Of a stretch of 64,000 nt of DNA, positions 4,487 to 47,444 are shown piece by piece; position 1 is the first letter of the stretch, and each line of letters starts with the position of its first letter. Location of the stretch: contig JACAEN010000026.1 of the NCBI GenBank assembly GCA_013388845.1, forward strand, positions 101,328-165,327, read 5' to 3'. The DNA is from Chloroflexota bacterium. Its GTDB lineage: Bacteria; Chloroflexota; Dehalococcoidia; GIF9; AB-539-J10. Both the position numbers and the translations under genes were made by a program. The notes below the pieces were generated by a model. The model was not told the origin of the DNA. It was given only the letters and a program-made list of their open reading frames with translations, and did not search any database.

Positions 4487-4524
4487 TGCCAGTCTCGTGG
4501 TGATTCTCCACGCCTCCCTAAATG

Positions 4525-10212: not shown

Positions 10213-10259
10213 AGTGTTCCCTCACATTACAATATCTTGTTATCCTGGTATATTAGTAT

Positions 10260-22017: not shown

Positions 22018-23382
22018 CTATCTCTTATATTTCCATCTTGTTCCTTGAGGGGTATCTTCAATGGTTACTCCTAAATTGGCTAACCCACTCCTAATTTTAT
22101 CGGCTAGCTGCCACTGCTGGTTTTGCCGTAAATCATCCCTAGTGGATACCAAGAGACTGATGAATGCTTCTGCGTCCGGTGTAACTTGTGTCTTTCCTTT
22201 TAAAGTAAGACCTAGGATGCCTGCTAGCTTGGATAAGGTATGCTGCGCTTTAGTTATATTTACACCTTGTTCTGCGCCACGGTTTATTTCCTTCATCAAT
22301 TCGAAGAGGACGGCTATTGCCTGTGCAGTATTGAAGTCGTCGTCCATAGCTTCGACAAATTTCTGCTCGGAGGGCTCCGCCTTGAGTATAGTAGCTCCCT
22401 TGTCTGCATTAGCTCGATGGGTCAATGCCCAACGCAATCTTTCTGCAGCCCTCTCGTTTGCTTCCAGAGCCTCCTCACTGTAGATGAGTGGATTCCGATA
22501 ATGCGAGCTAAGGATAAAAAGGCGAATAGCATCGGAACTAAAGCGACCCAAAGCGTCTTTGATGCTTACCAAATTACCTGTACTCTTACTCATTTTTTGC
22601 TTATCCTGCTGCATCAACCCATTATGTAGCCAGTATCGGACAAAAGGAGTCTCCTGGGTAAAACTTTCTGATTGAGCTATTTCGTTCTCGTGATGAGGAA
22701 AGACAAGGTCTTGCCCGCCACCATGGATATCAATAGTGTCGTCGAGGTGCTTTAACGCCATAGCACTACATTCAATGTGCCACCCTGGCCTACCCTCCCC
22801 CCAAGGGCTCTCCCAGAAAGGCTCACCAGGTTTTGACGCTTTCCATAAAGCGAAATCTAACGGATACTCTTTCTTTTCTTGATAGTTGCTAGCTTTAGGA
22901 ATCATCTCTGGCAGGCTCCGGTGACTTAGTTTGCCATAGTGGGGAAAATTCCTGACGCGGAAGTAAATACTTCCCTCAGACTCGTAAGCGTAGCCCTTAG
23001 CTAGCAGACCTTGGATAATTTCAATAATTTTTGGTATTTCCTCGCTTGCTTTGGGATAGACATCGGCCCGCTCTACATTCAATGCATCCATGTCGGAAAA
23101 ATATCGGTCAACATATTTGTTGGCTAGCTCTGCTGGTGGAATTCCTAACTGGTTAGCACGCTCTATGATCTTATCGTCGATGTCGGTAAAGTTTTGTACG
23201 TGTTTAACTTTATAGCCCTTGAATCTCAGGTAGCGTTTGATCACATCAAAGATTATGTAAGTCATGGCGTGCCCAATATGGCTTTCGTCGTAAGCAGTAA
23301 TGCCACAGACATACATGGTTACCACTTCGCTGCGGGGATGAAAATCATCCTTTCGTCCGGTTAGGGTATTAAACACTTTCAT
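22018..23382 (-). CDS. cysS: Cysteinyl-tRNA synthetase (class I)
   Basis: HIGH (ESHIGHAMTY), the zinc-binding Cys, and KMSKS (KMSKSTGN). 454 aa. Confidence 0.9.
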   Translation of the reverse strand: MKVFNTLTGRKDDFHPRSEVVTMYVCGITAYDESHIGHAMTYIIFDVIKRYLRFKGYKVKHVQNFTDIDDKIIERANQLGIPPAELANKYVDRYFSDMDALNVERADVYPKASEEIPKIIEIIQGLLAKGYAYESEGSIYFRVRNFPHYGKLSHRSLPEMIPKASNYQEKKEYPLDFALWKASKPGEPFWESPWGEGRPGWHIECSAMALKHLDDTIDIHGGGQDLVFPHHENEIAQSESFTQETPFVRYWLHNGLMQQDKQKMSKSTGNLVSIKDALGRFSSDAIRLFILSSHYRNPLIYSEEALEANERAAERLRWALTHRANADKGATILKAEPSEQKFVEAMDDDFNTAQAIAVLFELMKEINRGAEQGVNITKAQHTLSKLAGILGLTLKGKTQVTPDAEAFISLLVSTRDDLRQNQQWQLADKIRSGLANLGVTIEDTPQGTRWKYKR

Positions 23383-23535: not shown

Positions 23536-23979
23536 ATGAAACTTTCTACTAGGGGACGATACGGAGTCAGGGCACTTTTGGATTTAGCTCTTCATTCTTG
23601 TGAAGGAACCGTGCTACTAAGGGATATTGCCCGAAGGCAGGAGATTTCACTGCCCTACCTAGAGCACGTGATCACTCCCCTAGTAGCTGCTGGTCTGATG
23701 AAGACCACCCGCGGGCCTCGGGGCGGTGTTTTGCTACTTAAGTCTCCTGCAGAGATTAAGCTCAGTGAGGTGATTGGATTTCTGGAAGGCTCCATTGCCC
23801 CGGTGGATTGTGTTGATAATCCCGATGTGTGTCGCCGCTCTGCTTTTTGTGTTACCCGGGATATCTGGGGCGAGGTGAAGGAGGCCGTGCATCAGGTCTT
23901 AGATTCTATAACCTTACAAGACCTGGTTGAGCGTCAGAGGGAAAAGGGGCAAACAGGTACAGGGATGTATTACATTTGA
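23536..23979 (+). CDS. Rrf2-family transcriptional regulator (CymR/IscR-like)
   Basis: MKLSTRGRYGVRALLDLA… is a typical Rrf2 wHTH. It heads an operon containing cysK and cysE. Confidence 0.85.
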   Translation: MKLSTRGRYGVRALLDLALHSCEGTVLLRDIARRQEISLPYLEHVITPLVAAGLMKTTRGPRGGVLLLKSPAEIKLSEVIGFLEGSIAPVDCVDNPDVCRRSAFCVTRDIWGEVKEAVHQVLDSITLQDLVERQREKGQTGTGMYYI

Positions 23980-24064
23980 ATAGCCTTAGCCTCGGGAAAT
24001 GTGTTCATAAAACGTGGGTAGGCATTTTAGAGATTATTTTGTTTATGAATCGGAGGAAAGTGAA

Positions 24065-25078
24065 ATGGCAAAGATAACTCAAAACGTGGAGAGGCTTAAA
24101 TACAAGACGATAGAGCTACCGAAGCTAACCAGAGGGATAGCCAGAGATTCTACCGAGTTAATTGGGAATACACCTCTGGTCAGGCTGAACCGGGTGACTG
24201 AGGGGGTGAAGGCCGAGGTGGTGGCTAAGCTTGAATCCTTTAATCCCCTGGGAAGCGTAAAGGATAGAATTGGAGTATCTATGATTGTTGATGCTGAAGA
24301 GAAGGGGCTGATCGGCAAAGATACGGTGATTGTCGAACCAACTAGTGGCAATACTGGAATTGCCCTAGCTTTTGTCTGCGCTGCCAGGGGATACAGGCTT
24401 ATTCTCACCATGCCTGATACTATGTCTGTGGAGCGGAGGCAGCTTCTGTCTATTTTGGGAGCTGAGCTGGTCTTGACCCCTGGGGCGGAAGGGATGCCGG
24501 GAGCGGTGAAGAAAGCGGAACAATTGGTGGCGGAAAATCCCGATTATTTTATGCCCCAACAGTTTAATAATCCGGCAAATCCTGAGATACACCGACTGAC
24601 CACAGCAGAAGAAATCTGGAGGGATACTGGAGGTGAAGTAGATATTCTGGTTGCTGGTGTAGGAACGGGAGGGACAATCACAGGAGTGGCTGAGGTGATA
24701 AAGAAAAGGAAACCCGAATTTAAAGCTATAGCTGTTGAGCCTGCTGCTTCCCCAGTTCTTTCTGGGGGCAAGCCTGGCTCTCACAAAATTCAGGGTATCG
24801 GCGCGGGATTCATCCCCCAAATTCTCAGGCTAGATCTGGTTGATGAGATTATCAGGGTTACCAATGAGGATGCCGGGGCTATGGCCAGGAGATTAGCTAA
24901 AGAGGAAGGGATATTGGCTGGCATATCCTCAGGTGCAGCAACTTGGGCAGCGTTGGAGGCGGCCAAAAGAACAGAAAACAAAGACAAGCTTATCGTGGTA
25001 GTTTTGCCTGACACGGGAGAGCGCTATCTGTCCACCTGGCTTTTCCAAGAACTTTACCAAGCGGCATCGGGTCCGTAA
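24065..25078 (+). CDS. cysK: Cysteine synthase A / O-acetylserine sulfhydrylase (CysK/MccA family)
   Basis: …IGNTPLVRL…SVKDRIG…[12 protein letters not shown]…[10 protein letters not shown]… motifs. RBS GGAGGAAAG before the ATG at 24065. N-terminal extension of about 20 aa. Confidence 0.85.
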
Positions 25079-25151
25079 AAAGTGGAATGTATTACACGCT
25101 GAGCTGGAGAAATTTATCTACAGCCTAGCCAAAAAGCGAAAGGAGGAGTAA

Positions 25152-25955
25152 ATGAAGTTTTCAGAAATATCGGAAAAACAGGTTACGAAGGCGATCATAT
25201 CAGAGTTCAGCAGAGAATTTGAGGATTACATCGAAACTGATGTAATCGTAGTAGGTGCCGGACCTAGCGGGCTTATTGCCTCAAAAGAACTCGCGGAGAA
25301 GGGCATAAAAACGCTCCTTATCGAGAGCAACAACTACCTCGGTGGAGGCTTTTGGATCGGTGGCTATCTAATGAATAAGATAACACTGAGGGCTCCTGCT
25401 CAGGCGATTCTGAATGAAATTGGAGTCCCCTATAAAGAGGCAGAAGGGGGATTGTATGTGGCAAATGGACCACATGCATGCTCTAAGTTAATTGCCGCCG
25501 CTTGTGACGCCGGCGTTAAGGTATTAAGCATGACGAAGTTCGATGATGTGGTGGTAAGGGAAAACCGTGTCTGTGGGGTGGTCATCAACTGGACGCCTGT
25601 ATCAGCACTTCCGAGGGCAATCACCTGCGTCGACCCAATTGGTATTGAATCAAAACTTGTGATTGATGCCACGGGACACGATGCTGCAGTTGCTCGCTCG
25701 CTCGAAGAGCGAGGTCTGGTGAATATCAAAGGGCTTGGCGCCATGTGGGTTGCACAATCAGAGGACGCGGTTCTTGAGTATACAAAAGAGATATACCCGG
25801 GTCTGATTGTAACAGGAATGGCGGTTGCCACCACATTTGGTCTTCCCAGGATGGGTCCAACTTTTGGCGCTATGCTCTTCTCAGGAAAGAAGGCTGCAAA
25901 AGCTGCTCTGGAGCTCTTATCAAAGGAACAGTCTCTAGTCGGCATCACCTCTTAA
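25152..25955 (+). CDS. thi4: Thi4-family thiazole synthase, paralog 1 (Cys at the putative sulfur-donor position: …AITCVDP…)
   Basis: [14 protein letters not shown] motif and …[11 protein letters not shown]… give a full-length Thi4 alignment. Confidence 0.8.
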
Positions 25956-26006
25956 GAAGTATATCCCTACAAAAGCTAGTTGACAGGTAACAGGGAAAAA
26001 CGATTA

Positions 26007-26720
26007 ATGTTTAAAACGTTAAGAGAGGATATTCAAACGGTTTTTGCCAAGGACCCGGCAGCAAGGAGCACGCTGGAGGTCATCTTCTGCTATCCCGGCC
26101 TCCACGCCCTGTGGTTTCATCGTTTCAGCCATTTCTTATGGAGGCATAAGCTGCGATTTTTGGCGCGTCTACTCTCCCACTTTAATCGCTTCTTAACTGG
26201 CATCGAGATTCACCCTGGAGCTAGAGTTGGCCGGAGGTTCTTTATTGACCATGGGGCAGGGGTGGTTATCGGGGAGACAGCTGAGATTGGGGACGATGTC
26301 TTGCTGTATCAGGGGGCTGTCTTAGGGGGAACAACCTTAAGGAGGGGAAAACGCCACCCCACCATTGGCAATAACGTGGTGATGGGAGCTGGTGCGATAG
26401 CCCTAGGCGCTATTACGATCGGCGATAATGCCCGAATCGGTGCTGGCTCAGTGGTGGTAAAGTCGATACCGCCTGGGGCTACGGTGGTGGGAATTCCAGG
26501 AAGAATAGCAGAAGACCACCGAAAGCCGCTCATGGATTTGGAGCACGGTAACCTGCCTGACCCAGTGGCGGAAGCCATCAGGTTTGTCTTAAGGAAGCAG
26601 GACAGGTTAGAGGAACGCCTGAGAAAATTAGAGAGTGCTACTGGAATAGCATCTCTCGAAGAGGAGTTACAAGAGAAGCTAATGATAGAAGCAATATTCA
26701 GCCAGGGAGGGGGCATATGA
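26007..26720 (+). CDS. cysE: Serine O-acetyltransferase
   Basis: N-terminal SATase helix region ([15 protein letters not shown]…) and hexapeptide repeats ([26 protein letters not shown]…). The start is ambiguous; a TTG at 25980 is the alternative. Confidence 0.8.
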
Positions 26721-27859
26721 AATTTGAGACCATTGCTATTCACGCTGGAGGGAGGCCGGATAGGGCCTTTGGCGCTGTCTCGGTGCCTATCTACCAAACA
26801 TCAACCTTTGTCTTTGAGGATGTCGGTAAGACAAAAGGCTACGACTACTCTCGCACGGCAAATCCGACGAGAAAGGTTCTAGAAGATACCATTGCTCAGC
26901 TTGAAGGGGGGAAAGCTGGCTTCGCCTTCGCCACTGGAATGGCGGCTGAGACTACGGTTATGCATCTTCTGAAAGCGGGCGACCATGTAATCTCGGGAGA
27001 CGATGTTTATGGAGGAACCTACAGATTATTTCAAGATGTGATGAGCGCCTTTGGATTGGAATTCACCTTTCTTAGACTAGACAAACGGGAAGGAATTGAA
27101 GAAGCAATAAAGCCTAGTACCAAGATGCTGTGGCTAGAAACGCCCTCCAATCCGCTGCTCAACATCATTGACATCGAGATGGTGGTTGATATTGCTAAAA
27201 AACATAAACTGCTAACAGTAGCAGATAATACCTTTGCCACCCCTTATTTCTTAAGACCAATTGAATACGGGGTTGACCTCGTTGTTCACTCCACTACCAA
27301 GTATCTCAACGGGCACTGCGATGTTGTTGGTGGCGCTGTGGTGACCGCCACCGATGAACTAACTCAAAAGGTGCAATTTCTACTCAATGCCATGGGAACC
27401 TGTGCTGCTCCCTTCGACTGCTGGTTGGTGCTTCGTGGGATTGAGACTCTCCCAGTGAGAATGAAGCAACATGAGGAGAATGCCCTTACCGTGGCAAACT
27501 ACCTTAAGAGGCATCCCAGAGTAAAGAGAGTGCTTTATCCTGGGCTCAGATCTCATCCGGGACACGAAATCGCCAAAAAACAGATGAAAGGATTCGGTGG
27601 GGTGGTATCTTTTGAACTAGGAACTAGTATTGAAGCTGTCAATACTTTTCTAAGAAAGCTCAGGGTCTTTTCCTTGGCGGAATCGTTGGGTGGCGTCGTC
27701 TCTCTTGCTGAGCATCCAGCTACCATGAGTCATGCCTCGATGCCCGAGGATTATAGGGAGAGGGTGGGGATTAGCGATGAACTCATCAGGTTATCGGTTG
27801 GTTTGGAAAATGTTGACGATTTGATCCAAGATTTGGAGCAGGCGCTCGGTGGCCTGTGA
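26717..27859 (+). CDS. Cys/Met-metabolism PLP enzyme (cystathionine gamma-synthase/gamma-lyase family; MetB/MccB-like)
   Basis: …IYQTSTF…, the PLP lysine in …[10 protein letters not shown]…, 380 aa. Confidence 0.8.
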
Positions 27860-27869
27860 AGGACGGTTG

Positions 27870-29060
27870 ATGAAACTATACCAGGTAGTTGTAAAAGACA
27901 TTATGAGAAGGAAAAAACGAGTGCTATATGCCTCGCTGGGCGTGGTTATTGGTATTACAACAATCATTGCCGTGCTGACAATTGCCCTTGCCGGGCAAAC
28001 GAATATCTATGGTCAATTGGAAAAATATGGCGCTAATTTAGTCGTCATGCCTGCAATAAGCGATATTGATATAGGATTAGGCGATCTAAGTCTCGGCACT
28101 TTGGCAGTGGGAGAAAATTACATTTCCGAAGACAAATTGCCCCAGGTCAGACAAATAGCAGATGGCAAGATAAGAGAGGCATTGAATATCGAAGATGAGG
28201 CAGATATTGCCACGATTGCTCCGAAACTCTACATGAACACCAAGGTAAATGGAACGTCTGTAATAGTAGTTGGAATAGACCCTCAAGAAGAGCGCCAACT
28301 CAAGACGTGGTGGAGAGTCTCAAAAGGGAGGTACCTCGAAGCCCCAGACGAGGCACTGGTTGGGGCAATAGCCGCTGAGCTACTAAAATTCAATGTAGGC
28401 GACAAAATTACACTTAACGGGGCAGAGCTAACCATTACCGGCATTCTCGAGGAGACAGGCTCAAACGAAGATTATCAGGTTTTCATTCCTATGGAAACGG
28501 CACAGAAGGCATTCGATAAAGAGGGATTGGTTTCCTCAGTAGACATTCGTGCACTGTGCAATGCATGCCCTACCTCAGATATTGCGAGTGCCATTAACGA
28601 GAACATGCCGGGAGTCCGTGCAGTTGCCGTAAAGCAAATAGCTGAAACTGAAATGGGCATGCTGGAGAAGATAAGTAAGTTTCTATTCGCTTTAGCTGCA
28701 ATCACATTGGCCGTCGGATGCTTTGGTGTGGTCAACACGATGATGACCTCGGTTCATGAAAGAATCAAGGACATCGGCATAATGAGAGCAGTGGGGGCAT
28801 CACGCAATCAAATAATGAAGATTTTCCTCTACGAGGCCGTTATCGTTGGGATAGCTGGGGGCTTCCTTGGTTATCTAGCTGGGACTTTACTAGCATATCT
28901 AATCGGGCCGCTGATTTTTGGGGGCCTAGCCGTTACTTATGTTCCCCAGTATTTCCTCCCTTCATTGGCTCTGGCTACCTTTATTGCCATCATAGCGAGC
29001 GTGTACCCTGCGTTCCGTGCCTCCAGAATTAAGGTCGCTGACTCTTTCAGATCATTGTGA
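27870..29060 (+). CDS. ABC transporter permease, FtsX/MacB-like
   Basis: N-terminal TM helix, large periplasmic domain, and a C-terminal 3-TM FtsX domain. Confidence 0.75.
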   Translation: MKLYQVVVKDIMRRKKRVLYASLGVVIGITTIIAVLTIALAGQTNIYGQLEKYGANLVVMPAISDIDIGLGDLSLGTLAVGENYISEDKLPQVRQIADGKIREALNIEDEADIATIAPKLYMNTKVNGTSVIVVGIDPQEERQLKTWWRVSKGRYLEAPDEALVGAIAAELLKFNVGDKITLNGAELTITGILEETGSNEDYQVFIPMETAQKAFDKEGLVSSVDIRALCNACPTSDIASAINENMPGVRAVAVKQIAETEMGMLEKISKFLFALAAITLAVGCFGVVNTMMTSVHERIKDIGIMRAVGASRNQIMKIFLYEAVIVGIAGGFLGYLAGTLLAYLIGPLIFGGLAVTYVPQYFLPSLALATFIAIIASVYPAFRASRIKVADSFRSL

Positions 29061-29069
29061 GGTAGCAAA

Positions 29070-29756
29070 ATGCTGGAAATCAAAAACATATCGAAAGTCT
29101 ACGGAGCGGGCACAACTAAAGTAGTTGCCTTAAATAACGTTTCCCTTCGTGTGAACAAAGGCGATTTCATAGCCGTTATGGGGCCTTCTGGAAGTGGAAA
29201 GTCCACTCTTCTGAATATCATCGGTGGTTTAGATTCTCCTTCCAGCGGCGAAGTGCTTTTAGACGCTAAACGCATCGACAATCTGGATGAGAATGCCCTC
29301 GTTGAGATCAGAAGGGAGAAAATTGCCTACGTTTTTCAGGAATATCATCTGATTCCATCGCTCACTGCTCTTGAAAATGTCCTTTTGCCTTTGACATTCT
29401 GCGGGGCGAATAAGAAAGACCAGAAAGCATTGGATATCTTGAAAAGAGTGGGGCTAGAAAAAAGGGCTGAACATAAGCCCAGCCAGTTAAGCGGCGGTGA
29501 GCAACAGAGAGTAGCAATTGCTAGAGCCCTGGTTAATGACCCATCTCTTATTCTAGCGGACGAGCCAACGGGCAATATGGACCGGAAAACGGGAAAGGAA
29601 ATCTTAGCTTTATTCGATCAACTAAACAGAGAGGGTCGCAGCATTGTTATGGTTACTCATGACCCTGAGATAGCTGAGTATGCCAAAGAAATCGTAGTTC
29701 TCCAAGATGGTCAGATTGTAGACAAGATTAATCAAGAAGGAGGCAATAAATGTTGA
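29070..29756 (+). CDS. ABC transporter ATP-binding protein (MacB/LolD-type)
   Basis: Walker [10 protein letters not shown], signature LSGGEQQR, Walker B ILADEPT. Confidence 0.9.
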
Positions 29757-30235
29757 AGAAGATAATACTCATCCTGGTGTTGCTCATATTGGTTTCAAGC
29801 ATAGTTGCATGTAGCAGTAATGGCACACAAAGTAGCCAGCGAATAGAAGCGACGTGGGTTGAGCCACAGGTAGTTGGCGATACTGTATCCATACCAGTAA
29901 GTGAGGTCGAAAATAATTGGAATGTCCACTTTAATGTAAATACACCAGGCGGGGATATGAATTTCATGGCCTATGTGTTGGATGGAGAAATCTATGTCCG
30001 GGCAAATGTTTGCCCACCATGCCAGTCAATAGGCTTTTCTCTTGACGAAGACATTCTAGTATGCGATAGGTGCGCGACTACTTTCAGGGCACAAACAGGC
30101 GAAGGAATCAGCGGAGCCTGTGTGGGTTATCCCAAAGCAGCAGTTGCATACGAGATTAGCGGTGGCAACATAGTAATGAACAGCACCGACCTCGCGACTG
30201 CCTATCAAGATACTATTGAACCTGGGTGGCCTTAA
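29750..30235 (+). CDS. Lipoprotein with CPPC…CDRC zinc-ribbon-like motif
   Basis: Signal peptide plus lipobox (IVACSS). Two CxxC pairs. Confidence 0.5.
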   Translation: MLKKIILILVLLILVSSIVACSSNGTQSSQRIEATWVEPQVVGDTVSIPVSEVENNWNVHFNVNTPGGDMNFMAYVLDGEIYVRANVCPPCQSIGFSLDEDILVCDRCATTFRAQTGEGISGACVGYPKAAVAYEISGGNIVMNSTDLATAYQDTIEPGWP

Positions 30236-30299
30236 AGAGTAAACGATAGAAATTCGTGGAGTTGAGTCCTGATTGCACCAGATAAGGAGGACAGGATAA

Positions 30300-31298
30300 A
30301 TGGTGACCAGAAAAACAACAAGTAGAGAAAGAGAGCTCGAATTGAGCAGAGGGGCGGCACGAAAGAACAGCCTGATGATAATATCAGCGGCAATTGTGGT
30401 GGCAGCAGTGCTGCTTTTGGTCCTATTTAACCCGCTGTCAGCCAATCATCGGCCAGCCATCGCCAGTCTGGAAGCTGAGTCGGAGAGAGTTCTTCCTTCG
30501 AGAAGCTGCCAGATTGCGTGTAATGCTTCAGACCGTGATGGCGACGGGCTAAGCTATAACTGGTCGGCTAGTGGAGGTGAAATAAGTGGGGAGGGAGCTA
30601 CGGTTACCTGGACCGCTCCCGACTCTGCAGGCTCCTACAATGTTACAGTAACGGTGACCGATGGCCGCGGTGGCGAAGTCACGAAACAGATAACCATCAC
30701 AGTGAGAGCTAATAAGCCGCCAACCATTACCAGCCTAGGAGCCGGTGCAGACTGGACCACCCCTTTGGATAGTATCCAGGTGACGTGTACTGCTTCAGAC
30801 CCTGATGATGATGAGCTGAACTATGAGTGGTCAACCAGCGGAGGTAATATTACCGGCACGGGACCTGAAGTTATCTGGACTGCTCCCGAAGAAGTTGGCA
30901 TATACCACGTCACAGTTGCGGTTACCGATGGTCACGGTGAAGAAGACACAAGGTTGGTATATCTCAGCGTGTCAAATGATCCTCCGCCAATTATTGAAGA
31001 TCTGATTGTTACTGCCGAGCACCAATACTTGAAGGAAACCACTACTGGGTACAACGTCGGGAAAACAAAAGAATACGATATTGAGTGCATTGCTTCAAAC
31101 ACGAGCGGCGAACTGGTTTATGAATGGTCATGCGATGGTGGCGAGATTTTCGGGGAGGGCTCTATGATTACCTGGACTGCCCCGGATGTGTCCGTTGAAG
31201 TTACAGTCACGGTGGTAGTGACTGATGTCGCTGATAATAGTGTGAGCAAGAGCATAATTCTTAATGTGGTGCCTTGTTCAGCATGCATTTTTGGATAA
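30300..31298 (+). CDS. Membrane-anchored protein with three PKD-like repeats
   Basis: N-terminal TM anchor. Three repeats of C(N/T)ASD(R/P)DGD(G/E)L(S/N)Y(N/E)WS(A/T)SGG…TW(T)APD…Y…VTV(T/A)VTDG. Confidence 0.6.
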   Translation: MVTRKTTSRERELELSRGAARKNSLMIISAAIVVAAVLLLVLFNPLSANHRPAIASLEAESERVLPSRSCQIACNASDRDGDGLSYNWSASGGEISGEGATVTWTAPDSAGSYNVTVTVTDGRGGEVTKQITITVRANKPPTITSLGAGADWTTPLDSIQVTCTASDPDDDELNYEWSTSGGNITGTGPEVIWTAPEEVGIYHVTVAVTDGHGEEDTRLVYLSVSNDPPPIIEDLIVTAEHQYLKETTTGYNVGKTKEYDIECIASNTSGELVYEWSCDGGEIFGEGSMITWTAPDVSVEVTVTVVVTDVADNSVSKSIILNVVPCSACIFG

Positions 31299-31323: not shown

Positions 31324-32541
31324 TTGTCCTATGCTATAGCCTTGCGCTGCCGGAAGTGTGGGCGAGAATATCCGTTGGAGCCTCTTAATCTATGTGACTT
31401 CTGTTTTAGTCCGTTAGAGGTGATCTACGACTACAAGTCTATAAGTAAAGCGGTAAGTCGGGAAAAGATTATCAAGGGGCCGCCAAGCATGTGGCGCTAC
31501 AAAGACTTGCTGCCTGTCGATGATGATATAGTGGACATTGGCACGGGATTTACTCCTCTTGTTAAGGCTGATAACTTGGAGCAGGCACTGGGGTTGGAGA
31601 AGCTTTATATTAAAAATGACTGCCTTAACCCAACGTACTCCTTCAAGGACCGGGTGGTCTCGATAGCTATCACCAAGGCACGAGAATTTGGATTTGATAC
31701 CGTGGCTTGTGCCTCAACAGGCAATCTGGCAGCTAGCGTGGCGGCTCATGCCGCCAAAGCAAATATAAAGTCCTATGTTTTCGTTCCCTCCGATGTAGAA
31801 CCAAGTAAGCTGACAGGAATAGCAATCTATAACCCGGTTCTGGTGATTGTTAGGGGAAGTTACGACGATGTCAACCGCCTCTGTAGCCAGTTAGCACAGA
31901 AGTATGATTGGGGGTTCATCAACATTAATCTCCGACCTTACTATGCTGAGGGGAGCAAAACCCTAGGTTATGAAGTAGCTGAGCAACTGGGATGGCTTGC
32001 CCCTGATTGTGTAGTGGCCCCTGCTGCCTCAGGGCTCCTCTTTACCAGGATATGGAAAAGCCTGGACGAGCTTTCTATGCTGGGTTTAATTCAACCAGTC
32101 AATACTCACATGTATGTCACCCAGGCTGCGGGTTCTTCCCCAATTGTCAATGCTTTTGAGGCAGGCACTCTCCATGTGCACCCAGTGAAACCAAATACCA
32201 TCGCCAAGTCTATAGCTATTGGGGACCCGGCCGATGGTTATTATGCATTGAGAGTTGCCCGACAGTCAGGGGGTGGAGCCTGCGCTGTTACCGATGAAGA
32301 AATGGTTGCGGGAATGAAGCTGCTGGCTGAAACTGAAGGCATTTTCGCCGAGACTGCTGGTGGTGTGGTAATAGCTGGGTTGAGAAAGTTAGTAACTTCA
32401 GGAGTAATTAAAAAGGATGAGCTTACAGTGGCTTTCATTACCGGAGCAGGACTCAAAACACAAGAAGTGATAGCCGGAGAAGTGCGTCCCATAGTAATCC
32501 AACCCAACTTGGAATCCTTTGAGGAAATTTTTGGTAAGTGA
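31324..32541 (+). CDS. Threonine-synthase-family PLP enzyme with N-terminal Cys4 zinc ribbon (ThrC or MetM-like O-phosphohomoserine-utilising enzyme)
   Basis: CRKCG…CDFC ribbon. PLP-lysine motif TYSFKDR. The Gly-rich loop is conserved. 405 aa. Confidence 0.75.
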   Translation: MSYAIALRCRKCGREYPLEPLNLCDFCFSPLEVIYDYKSISKAVSREKIIKGPPSMWRYKDLLPVDDDIVDIGTGFTPLVKADNLEQALGLEKLYIKNDCLNPTYSFKDRVVSIAITKAREFGFDTVACASTGNLAASVAAHAAKANIKSYVFVPSDVEPSKLTGIAIYNPVLVIVRGSYDDVNRLCSQLAQKYDWGFININLRPYYAEGSKTLGYEVAEQLGWLAPDCVVAPAASGLLFTRIWKSLDELSMLGLIQPVNTHMYVTQAAGSSPIVNAFEAGTLHVHPVKPNTIAKSIAIGDPADGYYALRVARQSGGGACAVTDEEMVAGMKLLAETEGIFAETAGGVVIAGLRKLVTSGVIKKDELTVAFITGAGLKTQEVIAGEVRPIVIQPNLESFEEIFGK

Positions 32542-32606
32542 GCTTGAGTCTGTAATATCCTACTCGTGTTATAATTTGGTTCTAGGAGAAATATCAGGAG
32601 GACAAG

Positions 32607-32849
32607 ATGGTTAAGCGAAGAGTAAGGTTCACCTTTCCCCCAGAATTGATCAAGGAGCCCATCATTTACAAACTTGGCCAGCAGTTTGAGGTAGTGACCA
32701 ATATCCGCCGTGCCGATATAAATGGAGATAAGGGCTGGGTAGTTCTTGAGTTGGAGGGGGAAGGAGAAGATATCGAGCGTGGAATTGCCTGGGTAACGGC
32801 CAAGGGGGTGAGGGTCGACTCTGTCAGTGGCGACGTGGTGGAGGGCTAA
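32607..32849 (+). CDS. Standalone NIL-domain protein (80 aa)
   Basis: Homologous to the N-terminal domain of the NIL-ferredoxin at 47445: RRVRFTFPPELIKEPIIYKLGQQFEVVTNIRRA…WVVLELEGE… versus RRIVLHFPPNITGQPVVYRLVKDFGLTFNILKA…LLVMELSGE…. RBS CAGGAGG. Confidence 0.6.
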   Translation: MVKRRVRFTFPPELIKEPIIYKLGQQFEVVTNIRRADINGDKGWVVLELEGEGEDIERGIAWVTAKGVRVDSVSGDVVEG

Positions 32850-32870
32850 GAATATAGTGGGGAGATAGCT

Positions 32871-33881
32871 ATGGATAGATATTCAAGGCAGATACTTGTA
32901 GCAAATATTGGAGAATCTGGCCAGCAGAAACTCTTAAGAAGCAGGGTTCTACTCGTTGGTTGTGGTGCGCTAGGTACAGTGATAGCCAACAACCTTGTTA
33001 GGGCTGGGGTCGGCTATATAAAGATCGTGGACAGGGATTGCGTTGAACTGGATAATCTCCAGCGACAGATGCTATTCGACGAAGAGGATGTGGAAAAGCG
33101 GATGCCCAAGGCATTGGCAGCAGCCAATAAGCTACGCAGGATAAACTCCTCTATAGAAATACAAGCTGAGGTGAAGGATGTTACCCAGAAGAATGTTGAA
33201 TGGTTGGTCAGGGATATAGATATCGTCCTGGATGCGACCGACAACCTCGAAACGCGCCTGCTGATAAATGATGCCTGCTTTAAACATAATATCCCTTGGA
33301 TATATGGTGCTGTGATATCGAGCTGCGGTATGACGATGAATATCATTCCCGGAGAGACAGCTTGCTTTAGGTGTCTCCTTCCTTACGTGCCAGCCCCAGG
33401 TTCCGCTCTTACCTGCGACACCGCCGGAGTGCTGAATGCGATACCGACCGTAATCGCGTCGCTTCAGTCCAATGAGGCGATCAAGATCCTTTTAGGGGAT
33501 AAGCATGTGAATCAGGGACTGCTGGTAATTGACTTGATGGATAATAGCTTCGAGAAAATCCCCGTGGGGAAAAGGGATGATTGCCCATTATGCCGGGACA
33601 GAAAGTTTGAGTATTTAGACAAAAAAGGGTTGAGTGAGCCGATCAAGCTATGCGGGAGGGAGATGGTACAGATCACCCCACAAAGGGAGATGGAGGTCTC
33701 ACTAGAAGATCTCAAGGAAAAGTTAGAGAGGGTAGGCGACGCTTCCTATATGGGATATCTATTAAGGTTCAGTGTGGACAAATATGAACTAATAATTTTC
33801 CCCGATGGGAGAGCTTTTGTGAAAGGCGTTAGTGACAAGGAGACGGCGAGAAGCCTGTACGCTAAGTACATCGGGGTATAG
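32871..33881 (+). CDS. E1-like ThiF/MoeB/HesA-family activating enzyme with CxxC zinc site and an extra domain of about 90 aa at the C-terminus
   Basis: RQIL…GQQKL…VLLVGCGALG… nucleotide-binding motif. …CFRC…CPLC… zinc pairs. Confidence 0.8.
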   Translation: MDRYSRQILVANIGESGQQKLLRSRVLLVGCGALGTVIANNLVRAGVGYIKIVDRDCVELDNLQRQMLFDEEDVEKRMPKALAAANKLRRINSSIEIQAEVKDVTQKNVEWLVRDIDIVLDATDNLETRLLINDACFKHNIPWIYGAVISSCGMTMNIIPGETACFRCLLPYVPAPGSALTCDTAGVLNAIPTVIASLQSNEAIKILLGDKHVNQGLLVIDLMDNSFEKIPVGKRDDCPLCRDRKFEYLDKKGLSEPIKLCGREMVQITPQREMEVSLEDLKEKLERVGDASYMGYLLRFSVDKYELIIFPDGRAFVKGVSDKETARSLYAKYIGV

Positions 33882-33936
33882 GTATGGGGCTTATCATTAG
33901 CACTTCGAGAATGCTAAAAGCAAAGAAAGAGTTAGA

Positions 33937-34221
33937 ATGAGCATCATGGTGAGGATTCCTTCCCTACTGCACCAACAAACAAAGGGGCAGAAGGTAGTGG
34001 ATGTGACAGCAAATGATGCCTTGGAGTGCCTGAATAACTTGGGGGCTCAATCTCCGGGCCTTCAGCGATGGCTCTATGGCAAGCAGAGCGAGTTATGGTC
34101 TCAGGTTCATATTTTCATCAATGGGGAGCAGGCTTCCGTCGGTGAATTATTAAAGTATGGCGATGAACTCTCAATGACGCTTGTCATTGCCGGTGGGATA
34201 GAACTTGTATGGCAACCATGA
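33937..34221 (+). CDS. ThiS/MoaD/CysO-like sulfur-carrier protein with 7 residues (IELVWQP) after the Gly-Gly
   Basis: Beta-grasp pattern MVRIPSLL…VDV…LECLNNL…IFINGE…[20 protein letters not shown]. The stop overlaps the iscS start. Confidence 0.6.
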
Positions 34222-35384
34222 AGCGCATATATCTGGATCATGCTGCCACCACGCCAACTCATCCTGAGGTGGTACAGGCCATGCTGCCTTATTTTACTGA
34301 GGCGTTTGGCAATCCTTCGAGTATCTATTCTTATGGACAAGAAGCGAAGGGAGCTATAGAAGAGGCCAGAACTAAGGTAGCGGAATTTATCGGTGCCCGG
34401 AGCGAGGAGATTATCTTTACCAGTGGAGGAACGGAGGCGGATAATTTCGCCCTTAAGGGCATTGCCTATGCCAATGAACATAAAGGGAATCACATCATCA
34501 CTACCGCCATTGAGCACCATGCCGTGATTGAGGCGTGCAAGTTTTTAGAGAGAAGAGGATTCAGGATAACTTACCTGCCGGTGGATAAATACGGCCTGGT
34601 TGACCCTGACGATGTGAAAAGAGCTATTACTGACAAGACTATCCTCATCTCAGTCATGCATGCGAGCAACGAAGTGGGTACTATAGAGCCTATAGGCGAA
34701 ATAGGCAAAATTGCTAAAGAGGCGGACATCTATTTTCACAGCGATGCTGTGCAAACGGTAGGACACATTCCAGTGAATGTGGATGAACTCAAGGTGGACT
34801 TGCTCTCCATTTCAGGGCATAAATTCTACGGGCCCAAGGGAGTGGGGGCGCTGTATGTCAGAAAGGGCACTAGGTTAGTTCCCTTTGTACACGGAGGTGG
34901 GCAGGAAAGGCGGCGGCGCGCTGGTACGGAAAATGTCCCAGCTATCGTGGGGCTGGGCAAGGCGGCGGAGCTGGCTGGGCAGGGGATGGGCAAGGAAGCA
35001 GAACGGTTGGCTTATCTTCGTGATAAGCTGATTAAAGGTCTCAGGGAGAAGATTGACCACACCCGCTTGAATGGTCATCCCACAAGAAGGTTGCCCAACA
35101 ATGTCAATATCAGCGTGGATTTTGTGGAAGGGGAGTCCATGCTTTTGAATCTCGATCTAGAGGGCATCTGTGCTTCCACTGGGTCGGCCTGCAGCTCCTC
35201 AAGCCTAGAGCCGTCCCACGTTCTTCTGGCACTGGGGCTTTCTCCCGAGCAAGCTCACGGTTCGCTCAGGTTCACGCTGGGGCGGGAAAACACGGAAACA
35301 GACGTGGAGCGAGTACTAGAGGTCTTGCCGGGAATTGTCAGCAAGTTGAGAGCCATGTCCCCGCTTTTGAAAACTCAACAGTAG
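34218..35384 (+). CDS. iscS: Cysteine desulfurase (IscS/NifS), copy 1
   Basis: …[10 protein letters not shown]…, the PLP lysine in …[12 protein letters not shown]…, and the active-site SACSS. Confidence 0.85.
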
Positions 35385-35386
35385 GA

Positions 35387-35806
35387 ATGGAACAAATGCC
35401 TGATGTCCCGTCGCAGTACAGCGAGAAGGTAATGGAGCACTTCAAGAATCCCCGCAATGTTGGGGAAATGGAGAACCCGGACGGCGTGGGACGGGTCGGT
35501 AATCCGGTGTGCGGCGATATTATGGAGCTTTACATTAAAGTAAAGGATGGCATCATAGTTGACGCTAAATTCAAGACCTTTGGCTGTGGAGCAGCCATTG
35601 CCACCAGTTCCATGGTCACTGAGATGGTGAAGGGCAAGACTATAGAAGAAGCTCTGAAAATCTCCAACAAAGCAGTAGCCGAAGCTCTGGATGGGCTGCC
35701 GCCGGTCAAGATGCACTGCTCGATCCTGGCTGAGGAGGCGCTTAAATCGGCCATTGAGGATTACTTAGACAACTCAAAGAAGAGAGGAAGAGCCGCAAAA
35801 CGATGA
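35387..35806 (+). CDS. iscU: Fe-S cluster scaffold IscU/NifU-like, copy 1
   Basis: …NPRNVGEM…GNPVCGDIM…FKTFGCGAAIA…HCS… (three Cys ligands). Confidence 0.85.
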   Translation: MEQMPDVPSQYSEKVMEHFKNPRNVGEMENPDGVGRVGNPVCGDIMELYIKVKDGIIVDAKFKTFGCGAAIATSSMVTEMVKGKTIEEALKISNKAVAEALDGLPPVKMHCSILAEEALKSAIEDYLDNSKKRGRAAKR

Positions 35807-41445: not shown

Positions 41446-41575
41446 AACGGGAAACCCGAATAAAGCTGATAGCCCCACCCGCTCCGCGAAAACGCACAGG
41501 ATAAAGGAATTTGGTTTGATTATTTTGCAATTTTGGTATGCCAGAGAATAAGGGTTGAAAGATAAAGGTCGGCAC

Positions 41576-42316
41576 ATGTTAACGAAGGACGATTTGATTA
41601 GATACGGACGCCAGATTTTGTATACAGACTTTGGCCAAGAAGGACAGAAAAAACTCAAGCAGTCCAAAGTAGTGGTAGCCGGGCTTGGTGGGCTGGGATG
41701 CTCTGCTGCTCTGTATCTCACGTGTGCCGGCATAGGCTGTATCACCCTGATAGACTGTGACCGTGTGGAACTCTCCAATTTGAACCGCCAGGTTCTGCAT
41801 TATGAGGAAGATATTGGAGAGGGGAAGCCCTTCTCGGCAGCAAGGAAGCTGACTAACTTAAACTCTTCAATGGAGGTTACACCTGTTTTCAAAAAGATTA
41901 CTGAACGTAATGCTCGGGAGCTTATAAAGGGAGCAAATTTGGTAATAGATGGGATGGACGATTTTAGGACCAGATCTATTATTAATAAGGCGTGTGTTGC
42001 CGAAGGAATACCCTTCGTCCATGGGGGTGTTCATGGGCTCTTTGGTGAGGTCACTACCATACTCCCGGGGAGGACGCCCTGTCTGGCGTGTATTTTCCCC
42101 GAAGTTCCCCGCAGGAGAAGCGCGGTCCCTGTTTTTGGTGTAACCCCGGCTTTAGTTGCCATCTTGCAGGTGACGGAAGCGATTAAACTTCTGGCCGGGT
42201 TCGGGCGTTTGCTGACAGGGAAGATGTTGTATTTCAACGGTGAAACGATGGAGTTCACATTCTGCAAACTGGCGAGAAACCCGGATTGCCAAGTGTGCGG
42301 GACAAAGGAGGTCTGA
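41576..42316 (+). CDS. E1-like MoeB/ThiF-family adenylyltransferase, copy 2
   Basis: …RQIL…GQKKL…VVVAGLGGLGC… and the CxxC…CxxC zinc site (…CLAC…CQVC). A TTG at 41555 is an alternative start. Confidence 0.8.
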   Translation: MLTKDDLIRYGRQILYTDFGQEGQKKLKQSKVVVAGLGGLGCSAALYLTCAGIGCITLIDCDRVELSNLNRQVLHYEEDIGEGKPFSAARKLTNLNSSMEVTPVFKKITERNARELIKGANLVIDGMDDFRTRSIINKACVAEGIPFVHGGVHGLFGEVTTILPGRTPCLACIFPEVPRRRSAVPVFGVTPALVAILQVTEAIKLLAGFGRLLTGKMLYFNGETMEFTFCKLARNPDCQVCGTKEV

Positions 42317-42320
42317 AAGA

Positions 42321-42593
42321 ATGAGTATGACGATAAGGCTTCATCCATTTCTGCAACACCTTACTGGCGGGCAAGAGGTGGTGGAGGTGGCGGGGCGCAC
42401 CACTGGTGAATGTATTGAGAACTTGGAAAGTCGTTTCCCGGGTATCAGACAGCAGATTCGTGATAAGAAAGGGCAGCTGCGTCCTTATTGTGAAATTCTT
42501 CTTAACTCCGAATCCACTTATCCTAACGAGCTAACTACCACGGTGAAAGACGGAGACCTGATTGACATTTTGTTTATCGTTACTGGAGGGTAA
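42321..42593 (+). CDS. MoaD/ThiS-like sulfur carrier ending in Gly-Gly
   Basis: RBS AAAGGAGG. MSMTIRLHPFLQHLTGGQEVVEV…DGDLIDILFIVTGG*. Confidence 0.65.
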   Translation: MSMTIRLHPFLQHLTGGQEVVEVAGRTTGECIENLESRFPGIRQQIRDKKGQLRPYCEILLNSESTYPNELTTTVKDGDLIDILFIVTGG

Positions 42594-42617
42594 TGGCAGG
42601 ATAAAACTGGTGACTGC

Positions 42618-43061
42618 ATGGCTAAAATAATCGCCGTTTGTAGCAGTAAAGAAAAAGGTACCAAAAAGGAAGCCCTAGTCGAAGGTATCCTTAAGGAAGG
42701 CTACGGCCTAGTTGGCGATGCCCATGCTGACTGCTGTACGCATCGGCAAGTGAGCCTATTGGCGATGGAGAGTATCGATAAGATGAGAAAGTTGGGTTTC
42801 GAGGTAAGTCCTGGAGATTTTGCTGAAAATCTTACCACCCAAGGGGTAGAACTTGTCTCTCTGCCTGTAGGCACAAGGATCTCCATTGGACAGGACGTCC
42901 TTCTTGAGGTCACCCAGATTGGCAAGCAGTGCCACAACGGGTGTGCCATTTATCGGCAAATAGGCAAATGCGTCATGCCTAAGGAAGGGGTATTTGTCAA
43001 GGTAGTTCGCGGCGGCTTTGTCAGGGCTGGAGACCGGGTAAGGATAGAAAAAAATGGATAA
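42618..43061 (+). CDS. MOSC-domain protein
   Basis: MOSC beta-barrel pattern with a conserved Cys (…GKQCHNGC…). Confidence 0.65.
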   Translation: MAKIIAVCSSKEKGTKKEALVEGILKEGYGLVGDAHADCCTHRQVSLLAMESIDKMRKLGFEVSPGDFAENLTTQGVELVSLPVGTRISIGQDVLLEVTQIGKQCHNGCAIYRQIGKCVMPKEGVFVKVVRGGFVRAGDRVRIEKNG

Positions 43062-43845
43062 CGAGACAGAAAAATTTTCTATATTGAAGCTCACTGAAAA
43101 GGGGAGCAGCAGCATTGAAGCTGAAGTGGCCAGAGAGGTTCCCCTTACCATCATTTTAAATAACCAGGAATTGGTAACTTTGCTCTGTTCCCCCACAGAT
43201 TCGAAGTATTTGGCTGTCGGCTTTCTTTCCTCCGAAGGGTTCCTGAGAAACAAGGATGAAATCAAAAGGATAATGGTTGATAGCGAGAGGGGTGTGGTTC
43301 GGCTGGAAACTGTAGAAGATAAAGAATTTACGAAAGATGTCTTGTTCAAACGGATCATATCTTCGGGGTGTGGCAGAGGGGCTTCTTTCTATAGTGCCGC
43401 CGATGCCACCAGTCAAAAGGTGCAGTCACAGATGAAAATATTGGCTGATGAAATCTTTGTGCTGGTAAATGAATTTCAACACAGCTCTGAGGTCTATCTG
43501 GCAACGCACGGGGTTCATAGTGCTGCTCTGTGCGATAACAAAAGCGTTCTCGTTTTTAGTAATGATATCGGGCGGCATAACGCTATCGACAAAATCTTTG
43601 GGAAGTGCCTACTCGAGGACATACCCACCAACGACCGAGTGATAATAACCAGTGGCAGAATTTCCTCAGAGATATTACATAAAGTGGCCAAACGGGGTAT
43701 ACCTATAATAATCTCTATATCCGCACCGACTAGCCTCGGGGTGAAGATAGCGGATAATTTGGGCATCACTTTAGTCGCCTCTGTCAGGGGGAGGAGGATG
43801 AATGTCTACACCCATGGATGGAGGATAACACCGGATGGAAAGTAA
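43054..43845 (+). CDS. fdhD: FdhD-family sulfurtransferase
   Basis: Conserved SGCG loop (RIISSGCGRG), …IGRHNAIDK…. Confidence 0.8.
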   Translation: MDNETEKFSILKLTEKGSSSIEAEVAREVPLTIILNNQELVTLLCSPTDSKYLAVGFLSSEGFLRNKDEIKRIMVDSERGVVRLETVEDKEFTKDVLFKRIISSGCGRGASFYSAADATSQKVQSQMKILADEIFVLVNEFQHSSEVYLATHGVHSAALCDNKSVLVFSNDIGRHNAIDKIFGKCLLEDIPTNDRVIITSGRISSEILHKVAKRGIPIIISISAPTSLGVKIADNLGITLVASVRGRRMNVYTHGWRITPDGK

Positions 43846-45918: not shown

Positions 45919-46033
45919 ATTTGCTATGTCAAAGGGAATTTAATTGTCACCCTGAACGATAGTGAAGGGTCTGTAGATTCTTCGCCCCGACTTGTCGGGG
46001 CTCAGAATGACAAGAATGATTGTGAGAATTGCT

Positions 46034-47236: not shown

Positions 47237-47444
47237 TGCATAAACTCTAAATCCCAAGCACCAAATCCTAAAAGAAAATTAAAAGGCAAAAGTAAAAATG
47301 CAAAGTGACAGGGCAAAACTTAACAATCATTTTAGTAAAGCCTTTTTGCATGTTGAAGTGTAATTTTAATTTTTTGTCTTTGATTTTTGATATTTGTTAG
47401 GATTTGTTTAGGATTTAGAAATTGGAGGTTAGGATTTTATAGAG
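47237..47444. repeat. AT-rich intergenic repeat element, copy A
   Basis: Core gcaaaagtaaaaatgcaaagtgacagggcaaaac plus the terminal motif gatttgtttaggatttaga. The 5' end carries the inverse motif ctctaaatccc…aaatcctaaa. Confidence 0.6.

Follow-up and report, generated by a model that had tools for sequence, protein, structure and literature searches.

Introduction

The closest described relative of the system reported here is the MetM/MetO route to homocysteine of Streptomyces albulus (Hasebe et al. 2024, as cited in PMC12172450 and the GapMind 2026 preprint). According to these two sources, MetM converts O-phospho-L-homoserine to homocysteine with the thiocarboxylate of the carrier protein MetO (PMC12172450; GapMind 2026 preprint), control by S-adenosylmethionine (SAM) riboswitches has been reported for Streptomyces metM, and MetM "is often misannotated" as threonine synthase (GapMind 2026 preprint). 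Here we describe a related gene cluster from a Chloroflexota bacterium of the Dehalococcoidia (assembly GCA_013388845.1, contig JACAEN010000026.1, positions 101,328 to 165,327), in a window, that is, the whole stretch of DNA analysed, of 64,000 nucleotides. Its plus strand encodes a ThrC-like pyridoxal phosphate (PLP) enzyme (31324-32541; 405 aa, TTG start), a stand-alone NIL protein (32607-32849; 80 aa), a long-form ThiF/MoeB-type E1 (32871-33881; 336 aa) and a MetO-family sulfur carrier (33937-34221; 94 aa). A preliminary description of this DNA had proposed these four co-directional, closely spaced genes as a module for homocysteine or cysteine synthesis, and the gaps between them indeed measure only 65, 21 and 55 nt, while the carrier reading frame overlaps a following nifS gene by 13 nt. 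We consider it probable, though by no means certain, that the cluster encodes a MetM-type homocysteine synthase that uses a carrier thiocarboxylate, with the NIL protein as a conserved accessory.

The locus shares with the Streptomyces system a ThrC-homologous PLP enzyme with an N-terminal ribbon, a nearby gene for a carrier of ~90 aa, 51% identity to a riboswitch-controlled actinomycete orthologue, a common residue signature and a frequent threonine synthase mislabel. It differs in the 80-aa NIL protein encoded between enzyme and carrier, in having a long ThiF-type E1 and NifS within the cluster where Streptomyces has a distant MoeZ, in having no SAM riboswitch (an Rrf2 regulator leads the operon in relatives), and in a carrier that is diverged and C-terminally capped, with no Mec/JAMM gene seen nearby. 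The CysO-CysM-Mec+-MoeZ system of Mycobacterium tuberculosis offers a second parallel, as the thiocarboxylate of an E1-activated MoaD/ThiS-fold carrier attacks a PLP-bound intermediate and some carriers need trimming or hydrolysis by a JAMM protease. There, however, an enzyme of the CysK/CysM fold converts O-phosphoserine to cysteine, whereas the enzyme here has the ThrC fold, and MoeZ, the E1 partner of CysO and MetO in actinomycetes, bears a C-terminal rhodanese domain that the E1 of the window lacks. Thiocarboxylate-dependent homocysteine synthesis is also found in the HcyS-HcyF-HcyD-MetY system of Wolinella succinogenes, in which the carrier C-terminus must be trimmed by a metalloprotease, a possible parallel to the capped carrier described below. 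Its enzyme is an O-acetylhomoserine sulfhydrylase of the Cys/Met-metabolism fold acting on an acyl-homoserine, whereas the ThrC-fold enzyme here would use phosphohomoserine. Finally, the DUF39 (HcyBio) pathway, encoded 12 kb downstream in the same window, likewise yields homocysteine and involves a NIL domain (the two NIL copies of the window are 38% identical), but it adds sulfur reductively to aspartate semialdehyde and its NIL domain is fused to a ferredoxin, while the one studied here is free and pairs with a PLP enzyme.

A MetM-type enzyme labelled as threonine synthase

The enzyme consists of a ThrC-fold catalytic domain (Pfam PALP, 4e-70) with its PLP lysine, K108, in an SFKDR motif, preceded, as had been noted from the sequence, by a four-cysteine zinc ribbon (C9/C12/C24/C27). 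A database entry 100% identical to it, from a Chloroflexota metagenome-assembled genome (MAG), is named 'threonine synthase', and its nearest relatives are from Dehalococcoidia/Dehalococcoidales. The enzyme also exceeds the curated threonine synthase cutoffs (TIGR00260, 281 against 167; PRK08197, 316 against 303). However, family members that are linked to MetO and controlled by riboswitches reach or nearly reach the same cutoffs, so the threonine synthase label of these hidden Markov models (HMMs) does not discriminate. The canonical threonine synthases 2zsj (Aquifex), 6cgq (Bacillus subtilis) and 1uim (Thermus thermophilus) match the enzyme across the catalytic domain (HMMER, 1e-60 to 2e-52), with the same fold, the same SFKDR PLP-lysine motif and, by analogy within the family, probably the same substrate. 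They lack the ribbon, differ at 26 family-specific positions that include the NSxNPxR and PVGNAGN loops, and do not share the family's gene context of carriers, NIL genes and SAM riboswitches.

The comparison with MetM/MetO made in the preliminary description proved apt. A tblastn search of a plasmid collection found, in a mis-filed Nonomuraea chromosome, a gene whose product is 50.9% identical to the enzyme over 98% of its length. Directly 5' of this metM-like gene lies a SAM riboswitch (RF00162, 68.7 bits) and directly 3' a 91-aa reading frame ending in AVAGG; this is the metM/metO layout attributed to Hasebe et al. 2024, and the Nonomuraea locus served as a positive control. The proposed phylogenetic comparison with true ThrC gave a concordant result. 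In a neighbour-joining tree, four canonical ThrCs (Aquifex 2zsj, B. subtilis 6cgq and the short paralogues found beside the cluster at L033 and L036; such L-numbers designate loci and contigs of relatives) form an outgroup on a long branch, while the window enzyme and its relatives of 76-90% identity nest within a MetO/NIL-linked Chloroflexota clade and themselves show neither a long branch nor a reversion.

Residue signatures agree with the tree. As signature positions we took those where 90% or more of the family have one residue in common and canonical ThrCs invariably have another; there are 26. The window enzyme has a non-canonical residue at all 26 and the family majority at 25; the remaining one is R242, where the majority has K and canonical ThrCs have A. 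The motifs concerned are SFKDRVV in the family against SFKDRGM in canonical ThrCs, STGNL against STGNT, NINLRPYYAEGSKT against N-SxNPYRxEGQKT, PAASG against PVGNAG and KSIAIGDPADG against TAIxIGNPxSW. Hence three canonical active-site loops, STGNT, NSxNPxRxEGQKT and PVGNAGN, are replaced in the window enzyme by STGNL, NINLRPYYAEGSKT and PAASG. In the Thermus ThrC structures the Asn-Ser...Arg and GNAGN loops hold the phosphate steering water to C-beta; if this role is correct, the loss of both loops would be consistent with a changed reaction specificity.

We therefore place this 405-aa 'threonine synthase' in the MetM family, and its likely chemistry in this organism would be that of a homocysteine synthase. 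Of the homocysteine/cysteine synthase first suggested, the homocysteine half is supported by the SAM riboswitches and the kinship to MetM, whereas nothing points to cysteine. A cysteate synthase or O-phosphoserine sulfhydrylase was considered and rejected, as TIGR03844 gave only 69.5 bits against a cutoff of 325 and the SAM riboswitches point to methionine. Our literature search on homocysteine or threonine synthases of Dehalococcoidia returned nothing decisive.

The ribbon itself varies in the family. In Microcystis (L081, 4318-5622), the only cyanobacterial member whose sequence was read, the N-terminal region lacks the ribbon cysteines and the part shown has only one Cys, so the zinc ribbon is not universal.

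Gene neighbourhood and SAM riboswitches across the family

A search with an alignment of ribbon-bearing members, run against a single genome for each species, returned 80 loci at 55-76% identity. These came from Chloroflexota, Cyanobacteriota, Actinomycetota, Nitrospirota, Nitrospinota, Elusimicrobiota, Methylomirabilota, Thermodesulfobacteriota, Aquificota and a Syntrophaceae MAG, and the family is by this spread ancient and widespread. In 71 of the 80 genomes, HMM annotation of open reading frames (ORFs) placed a MetO-like carrier, typically ending ...SIVPAVAGG, on the strand of the enzyme gene and within 2.5 kb of it. The Rfam scans covered all 31 Chloroflexota and 8 Actinomycetota loci and most other non-cyanobacterial ones. 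A SAM riboswitch was found immediately 5' of the enzyme gene at all eight Actinomycetota and at nine of the 31 Chloroflexota loci, that is, in 17 relatives in addition to Nonomuraea. SAM-riboswitch control is therefore a lineage-specific rather than a universal feature of the family. Four of the nine Chloroflexota loci also have a NIL gene (L012, L016, L021, L046) and three have no adjacent carrier (L017, L025, L037).

The preliminary description had named a lack of conserved gene adjacency as a ground for doubt; the pairing of enzyme with NIL is conserved, and that of enzyme with carrier is conserved family-wide. A family member also occurs alone, with neither carrier nor NIL nearby, in an Aquificaceae MAG (L031, 148-1377). 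Since Aquifex is among the organisms without a known homocysteine route (Price et al. 2018), the gene becomes a candidate for the missing route.

A free-standing NIL protein beside the enzyme

NIL is the sole domain of the 80-aa protein (PF09383, 1e-14; 54 bits against a cutoff of 24), as first described, and its only other copy in the window is, again as described, on the NIL-ferredoxin of the DUF39 pathway (47445-47855; 64 bits with the NIL HMM). The view that a free-standing NIL is unusual did not hold up. A profile search that scored only the 8000 candidates sharing most words with the query matched NIL in 7997 of them at E<=1e-5, and the best 120 of the scored candidates are proteins of 80-100 aa (116 of exactly 80 aa) with NIL as their sole Pfam domain and 66-100% identity to the window copy. 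A NIL gene stands beside the enzyme gene in 27 of the 80 genomes (19 of 31 Chloroflexota, three of three Nitrospirota, and one each of Elusimicrobiota, Methylomirabilota, Thermodesulfobacteriota, Syntrophaceae and an unclassified organism), with none in the 29 cyanobacteria, 8 Actinomycetota and 2 Nitrospinota. Among close relatives with sequence past the enzyme, NIL adjoins it in every one bar L007 and L155, the latter having lost the enzyme gene.

Chloroflexota have the order enzyme-NIL-carrier and other groups enzyme-carrier-NIL, and two loci (L157/L158) carry a clean three-gene enzyme-NIL-carrier unit amid unrelated genes. In a Syntrophaceae MAG (L040, 7288-7803) a single 171-aa ORF joins a MetO-like carrier to NIL through a four-residue linker (...IIPAIAGG-SFLK-RRVMLTFPP...). 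This fusion may be a precursor resembling ubiquitin fusions, or it may be an assembly error. A gene with a JAMM motif lies near it at 9353-9754. The four NIL-bearing operons under SAM riboswitches tie NIL to methionine metabolism. The same four loci rule out the idea that NIL replaces the riboswitch.

Among solved structures (PDB), the NIL profile matches only the C2 domains of the MetN methionine importer subunit (2e-8 to 7e-6, full-length matches). An AlphaFold (AF2) model built from 26 sequences (pLDDT 76) has the ferredoxin-type order beta-alpha-beta-beta-alpha-beta and again resembles MetN C2 (3dhx/3dhw; Foldseek TM 0.75-0.80) ahead of ACT/PII-like folds. A nearly invariant asparagine, N32 in the NIRRA motif, aligns with N295 of E. 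coli MetN, whose replacement by alanine lowers L-methionine binding to undetectable levels (PMC6233128). In the MetNI importer the C2 domain is fused to the ABC ATPase and acts as a dimer that inhibits transport, unlike the free 80-aa protein here. Because NIL has no cysteine, it is not a persulfide carrier.

By analogy with MetN C2, NIL would most likely be a methionine/homocysteine-sensing subunit that tunes the enzyme or the carrier hand-off, although our confidence that it is a ligand-sensing accessory of either partner is low. We would give somewhat less than even chances to the proposal that NIL is a genuine third component of the MetM/MetO system in at least six lineages, be it as a methionine/homocysteine-sensing subunit or as a carrier-enzyme hand-off factor. 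If this were true, NIL would be a common module for methionine-family ligands in MetN import, in the DUF39 pathway (as NIL-ferredoxin) and in the MetM pathway, and its unexplained role in the DUF39 pathway would become directly testable. On a link between NIL and sulfur carriers, we found nothing relevant in the full texts searched beyond Price et al. 2018 on DUF39.

The sulfur carrier and its capped C-terminus

The carrier matches Pfam ThiS weakly (18.9 bits, below the cutoff of 22.5). A MetO HMM that we built from 56 MetO-like carriers matches it end to end (49.7-50.5 bits, positions 1-91), where MetO-like carriers score 50-75 bits and ThiS 12.5 bits. The carrier is also 35-37% identical to Chloroflexota MetO-like carriers and aligns over its full length with the Nonomuraea MetO. 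The end-to-end match and this identity place it in the MetO family and not with the short ThiS type, in keeping with the MoaD/ThiS-fold carrier of the preliminary description. Its gene lies 1.4 kb downstream of the enzyme gene in the same operon, with NIL and E1 between.

The Gly-Gly C-terminus expected of such a carrier is not terminal here. The two glycine codons (34192-34197) are followed by a seven-residue tail, IELVWQP (34198-34218). Where the relatives L087 and L091 read GCCGG-GGGATAG, the window reads GCCGGTGGGATAG, with an extra T at ~34194 within the Gly-Gly codons, so that the stop codon is missed and the tail arises. The same extra T is present in L159, an independent Logan assembly. 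Tails of 1-7 residues past Gly-Gly also occur on other MetO-like carriers in intact clusters (for example L008, L012, L033), and JAMM genes accompany some clusters with tailed carriers (L086, L011, L034, L040).

The long E1, NifS and the turnover of the donor arm

The E1 was correctly described as a ThiF/MoeB-type protein with a zinc site and an extra C-terminal domain. ThiF (PF00899, 5e-77) covers residues 4-239 and ~95 residues follow; the motifs include the nucleotide-binding GCGALG (GxGxxG), the zinc motifs CFRC and CPLC, and a Cys in TCDTAGV. The long-form model PRK12475 matches it over its full length below cutoff (376 against 510 bits), and the best-scoring equivalog model is ThiF (TIGR02356), also below cutoff (249 against 275 bits). 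No rhodanese domain matched the C-terminal region, PRK07878 covering residues 2-239 only. That region (33594-33878) is conserved as LCGR..VQI...FPDGRAxIKGT.D...ARSLYAxYIG and is weakly similar to single TBP repeats (PDB 2z8u, 9e-4; Pfam TBP in 4 of 20 members); a single-sequence AlphaFold model of the E1 was unusable (pLDDT 33). Homologues of the E1 lie in the same operon in relatives, and in two Anaerolineae (L025, L037) a long E1 is encoded behind an enzyme gene under riboswitch control.

Directly downstream, as had been reported, come genes for a NifS-type cysteine desulfurase (34209-35384, plus strand; TIGR03402, 609.7 bits against 530.75) and a NifU/IscU-type Fe-S scaffold (35387-35806, plus strand; TIGR03419, 215.7 bits against 187.9). 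NifU belongs to the same operon but need not take part in a homocysteine route. In most close relatives examined NifS follows NIL or the carrier; exceptions are L091 and L162.

We examined the conservation of the donor arm by a metagenome scan with the E1 as query and by tblastn for the 62-aa ThiS and DUF6775. The four-gene order of the window recurs in the L159 assembly and in metagenome contigs L087-L089, whose E1 is 93-94% identical; of their carriers, that of L087 alone is whole (ending IAGG*), those of L088/89 having lost the N-terminal part. L091 has the order enzyme-NIL-carrier-Thi4-like-DUF6775-E1, while L092, L094, L104 and L163 have enzyme-NIL-NifS-NifU-Thi4-like-DUF6775-ThiS(62 aa)-E1, of which L093, L095-L097, L100-L103 and L116 show the E1-proximal part. 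In L004 and L005 a short-E1 remnant accompanies a carrier with an internal stop, and L001 and L003 have neither E1 nor carrier at the site, L001 keeping a second E1/carrier pair discussed below. Alongside the same E1, clusters thus hold either a MetO-like carrier or the 62-aa ThiS. The implied stable module of enzyme with E1 and carrier is therefore not borne out in the nearest relatives, where E1 and carrier are lost or truncated, the carrier is interrupted, or the 62-aa ThiS takes its place: enzyme and NIL form the stable core, and E1 and carrier are evolutionarily labile in this lineage.

Several of these arrangements deserve a closer description. In L004 (9523-9988, and the same in L005) what is left of a short MoeB-like E1, an N-terminal and a C-terminal piece, lies between NIL and the carrier, whose frame is closed by a TAA at codon 18, the picture of a decaying donor arm. 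Thi4-like, DUF6775/DUF7001, 62-aa ThiS and E1 genes form a conserved sub-cluster in L092-L104, L116 and L163 (for example L163, 5826-8243). Behind the MetM-MetO-NIL cluster of the Syntrophaceae MAG, too, come a Thi4-like gene and a DUF6775 homologue (L040, 11711-12451). The window has neither DUF6775 nor the short ThiS, and its Thi4-like paralogue (25152-25955) has shifted to a place between cysK and cysE.

Proposed route and alternative explanations

In the route that we consider probable, the long ThiF/MoeB-type E1 would adenylate the Gly-Gly carboxylate of the MetO-family carrier, and the adjacent NifS desulfurase would be the likely source of sulfur for the carrier thiocarboxylate (carrier-COSH). 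The PLP enzyme would eliminate phosphate from O-phosphohomoserine, the thiocarboxylate would add at the gamma carbon, and the homocysteine released would be methylated elsewhere, with NIL modulating synthesis in response to methionine-family ligands. The substrate, the sulfur donor and the role of NIL in this scheme we infer from homology and gene context. Since the carrier is capped and both E1 and carrier are labile, the enzyme may have to draw on a protease from another locus, the second carrier of the window (42321-42593) or free sulfide. The donor arm is interchangeable in the lineage and may be impaired in this strain.

A number of findings weigh against this route. In this strain the carrier Gly-Gly is capped by seven residues, a regular-expression search of the 64-kb window found no JAMM/Mec-type motif, and the window carrier scores lowest of its group against the MetO HMM (50 against 66-75 bits). 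In close relatives the carrier is absent, stop-interrupted, N-terminally truncated or replaced by the 62-aa ThiS beside E1, while E1 usually adjoins Thi4-like/DUF6775/ThiS genes and remoter E1 homologues are found where the enzyme is lacking, so that both carrier and E1 look dispensable. With regard to NIL, only three weak positions in the enzyme track its presence, and these are confounded by phylogeny; in addition L155, which has lost the genes for the enzyme and for a CGS-like protein (of the cystathionine gamma-synthase/lyase family) down to a 27-codon remnant, still has an undamaged NIL gene ahead of NifS-NifU. With the DUF39 route to homocysteine encoded in the same window, the function may be redundant, and the window contains no SAM riboswitch (Rfam), unlike 17 relatives and Nonomuraea. 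Lastly, a cyanobacterial family member from Microcystis acted in vitro as a threonine synthase and as a deaminase (PMC12172450).

One alternative, which we think rather unlikely, holds that the carrier arm was inactivated recently and persists as a remnant, the insertion of 1 nt blocking the Gly-Gly carboxylate so that the thiocarboxylate module no longer works. The extra T is reproduced in two assemblies, but both may derive from the same reads. The missing JAMM motif fits inactivation, although a protease may be encoded outside the window, and JAMM genes do lie beside some tailed-carrier clusters, tails of 1-7 residues being common in intact ones. The carrier is the most diverged of its group not only by its MetO HMM score but also by its identity to L087 (83%, against 94% for the E1), and parallel decay is seen in L004 and L088/89; its reading frame is otherwise intact.

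It is decidedly unlikely, in our view, that only enzyme and NIL form a MetM-type synthase, drawing on sulfide or the second carrier, while the long E1, carrier and NifS belong to another relay (Thi4-like/DUF6775/ThiS/ThiF), for thiazole or other thiolation, that has moved beside NIL. Such a relay would account for the NifS-NifU-Thi4-like-DUF6775-ThiS(62 aa)-E1 order in relatives whose E1 is 74-85% identical, for E1 homologues at 41-56% identity that occur with NifS-like genes and without the enzyme, for the E1 kept in L155 in the absence of the enzyme, for ThiF as the best-scoring E1 equivalog and for the decay, in several genomes, of the carrier beside E1. It is at odds with the carrier by NIL, which is of the ~90-aa MetO family and not a short ThiS, and which in L091 and L004 lies directly 3' of NIL, the canonical MetO position. 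Further, variants that swap carrier and 62-aa ThiS retain the E1, suggesting that one E1 serves either, the long E1 follows riboswitch-controlled enzyme genes in Anaerolineae, and Thi4-like/DUF6775 genes accompany the MetM-MetO-NIL cluster of Syntrophaceae as well.

Improbable, finally, is that the enzyme is the organism's threonine synthase, possibly its only one, with E1, carrier and NIL serving other processes: this would suit the equivalog scores and database names, the dispensable carriers, the DUF39 supply of homocysteine, the threonine made in vitro by the Microcystis homologue and the absence of a further ThrC homologue from the 64-kb window, but MetO-linked members under SAM riboswitches score much the same, the enzyme departs from structurally characterised ThrCs at all 26 positions, its clade shows no long branch or reversion, carrier-less members (L017, L025, L037) are still under SAM riboswitches, and a separate canonical ThrC is present in the genomes where it is visible (L033, L036, and Microcystis as thrC2).

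A MetM-type route with NIL as accessory is of a kind already known from Streptomyces (MetM/MetO, 2024). Three features appear to be new: the occurrence of a NIL accessory in at least six lineages, a long E1 and NifS encoded within the operon, and the evidence for turnover of the donor arm. The routine threonine synthase mislabel affects auxotrophy predictions for uncultured anaerobes such as the Dehalococcoidia. The conserved NIL partner, which is not in the published two-gene picture, offers a handle on NIL function outside the MetN transporter, including the DUF39/NIL-ferredoxin pathway of the same window. The turnover of E1 and carrier suggests that the enzyme can switch its sulfur donor, which bears on sulfur delivery in sulfidic versus sulfide-poor habitats.

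Neighbouring genes and other observations

The ~25 kb around the locus are rich in genes of sulfur metabolism. Upstream on the plus strand (23536-27859) lie genes for an Rrf2 regulator, CysK, the Thi4-like paralogue, CysE and the CGS-like enzyme, which, judged from relatives, are the upstream part of the same sulfur amino-acid operon. The CGS-like gene is immediately 5' of the enzyme gene in all relatives seen, unlike in the window, where a 3.4-kb block (27849-31298) found only in this strain and in L159 separates the two. The block encodes a MacB-type ABC permease and ATPase, an FtrD-like protein and a PKD/Ig-repeat protein. The enzyme-less locus L155 (5764-6243) is from a MAG labelled Peptococcaceae (GCA_054600955.1); its 27-codon remnant is of CGS, and it retains NIL, NifS, NifU, the long E1, CysK and CysE.

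Downstream follow a second NifS/NifU pair, TusA, DsrE, a second E1 and carrier with MOSC and FdhD, and then Thi4 and the DUF39 pathway. The second E1 (253 aa, MoeB-like) and the second MetO/MoaD-like carrier occupy 41555-42593 on the plus strand, the carrier at ~42321-42593 with a free ...TGG end; within 41555-43845 they are followed by MOSC, FdhD and then NadA. This carrier scores 63.8 bits with the MetO HMM and matches the NCBIfam SAMP1 and MoaD models below their cutoffs. The pair is also present in L001, a relative without the focal E1 and carrier, and it may serve molybdenum-cofactor sulfuration, a MetM-type enzyme, or both. The independent homocysteine route (45992-48737, plus strand) comprises DUF39/HcyBio (PF01837, 4e-152), the NIL-ferredoxin and a COG2122-type protein (PRK04334.1-3, 314 bits against a cutoff of 271), a pathway described in PMC5764234.

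Elsewhere in the window, SepRS (TIGR00470, 447 bits, cutoff 381), SepCysS (TIGR02539, 544, cutoff 365) and a normal CysRS are encoded on the minus strand within 8559-11768 and 22018-23382, so the genome has both direct and tRNA-dependent routes to Cys-tRNA. SepRS and SepCysS flank a 111-aa ORF without a family match, possibly SepCysE. A lone 5S rRNA gene (14659-14775, minus strand; 102 bits) is the only Rfam match in the 64 kb, with no match to 16S or 23S rRNA.

Two other Chloroflexota clusters showed further RNA elements. In a Chloroflexi MAG (L036), a T-box leader (7116-7542, 104 bits) lies directly 3' of the MetO-like gene, and a canonical 366-aa ThrC is encoded upstream of the cluster. In L025, the enzyme gene, which is under riboswitch control, is separated from the long E1 by a 483-aa ORF (4470-5921), and within this ORF, at 5418-5517, Rfam places PYLIS_3, the mttB pyrrolysine insertion element, at 42.6 bits.

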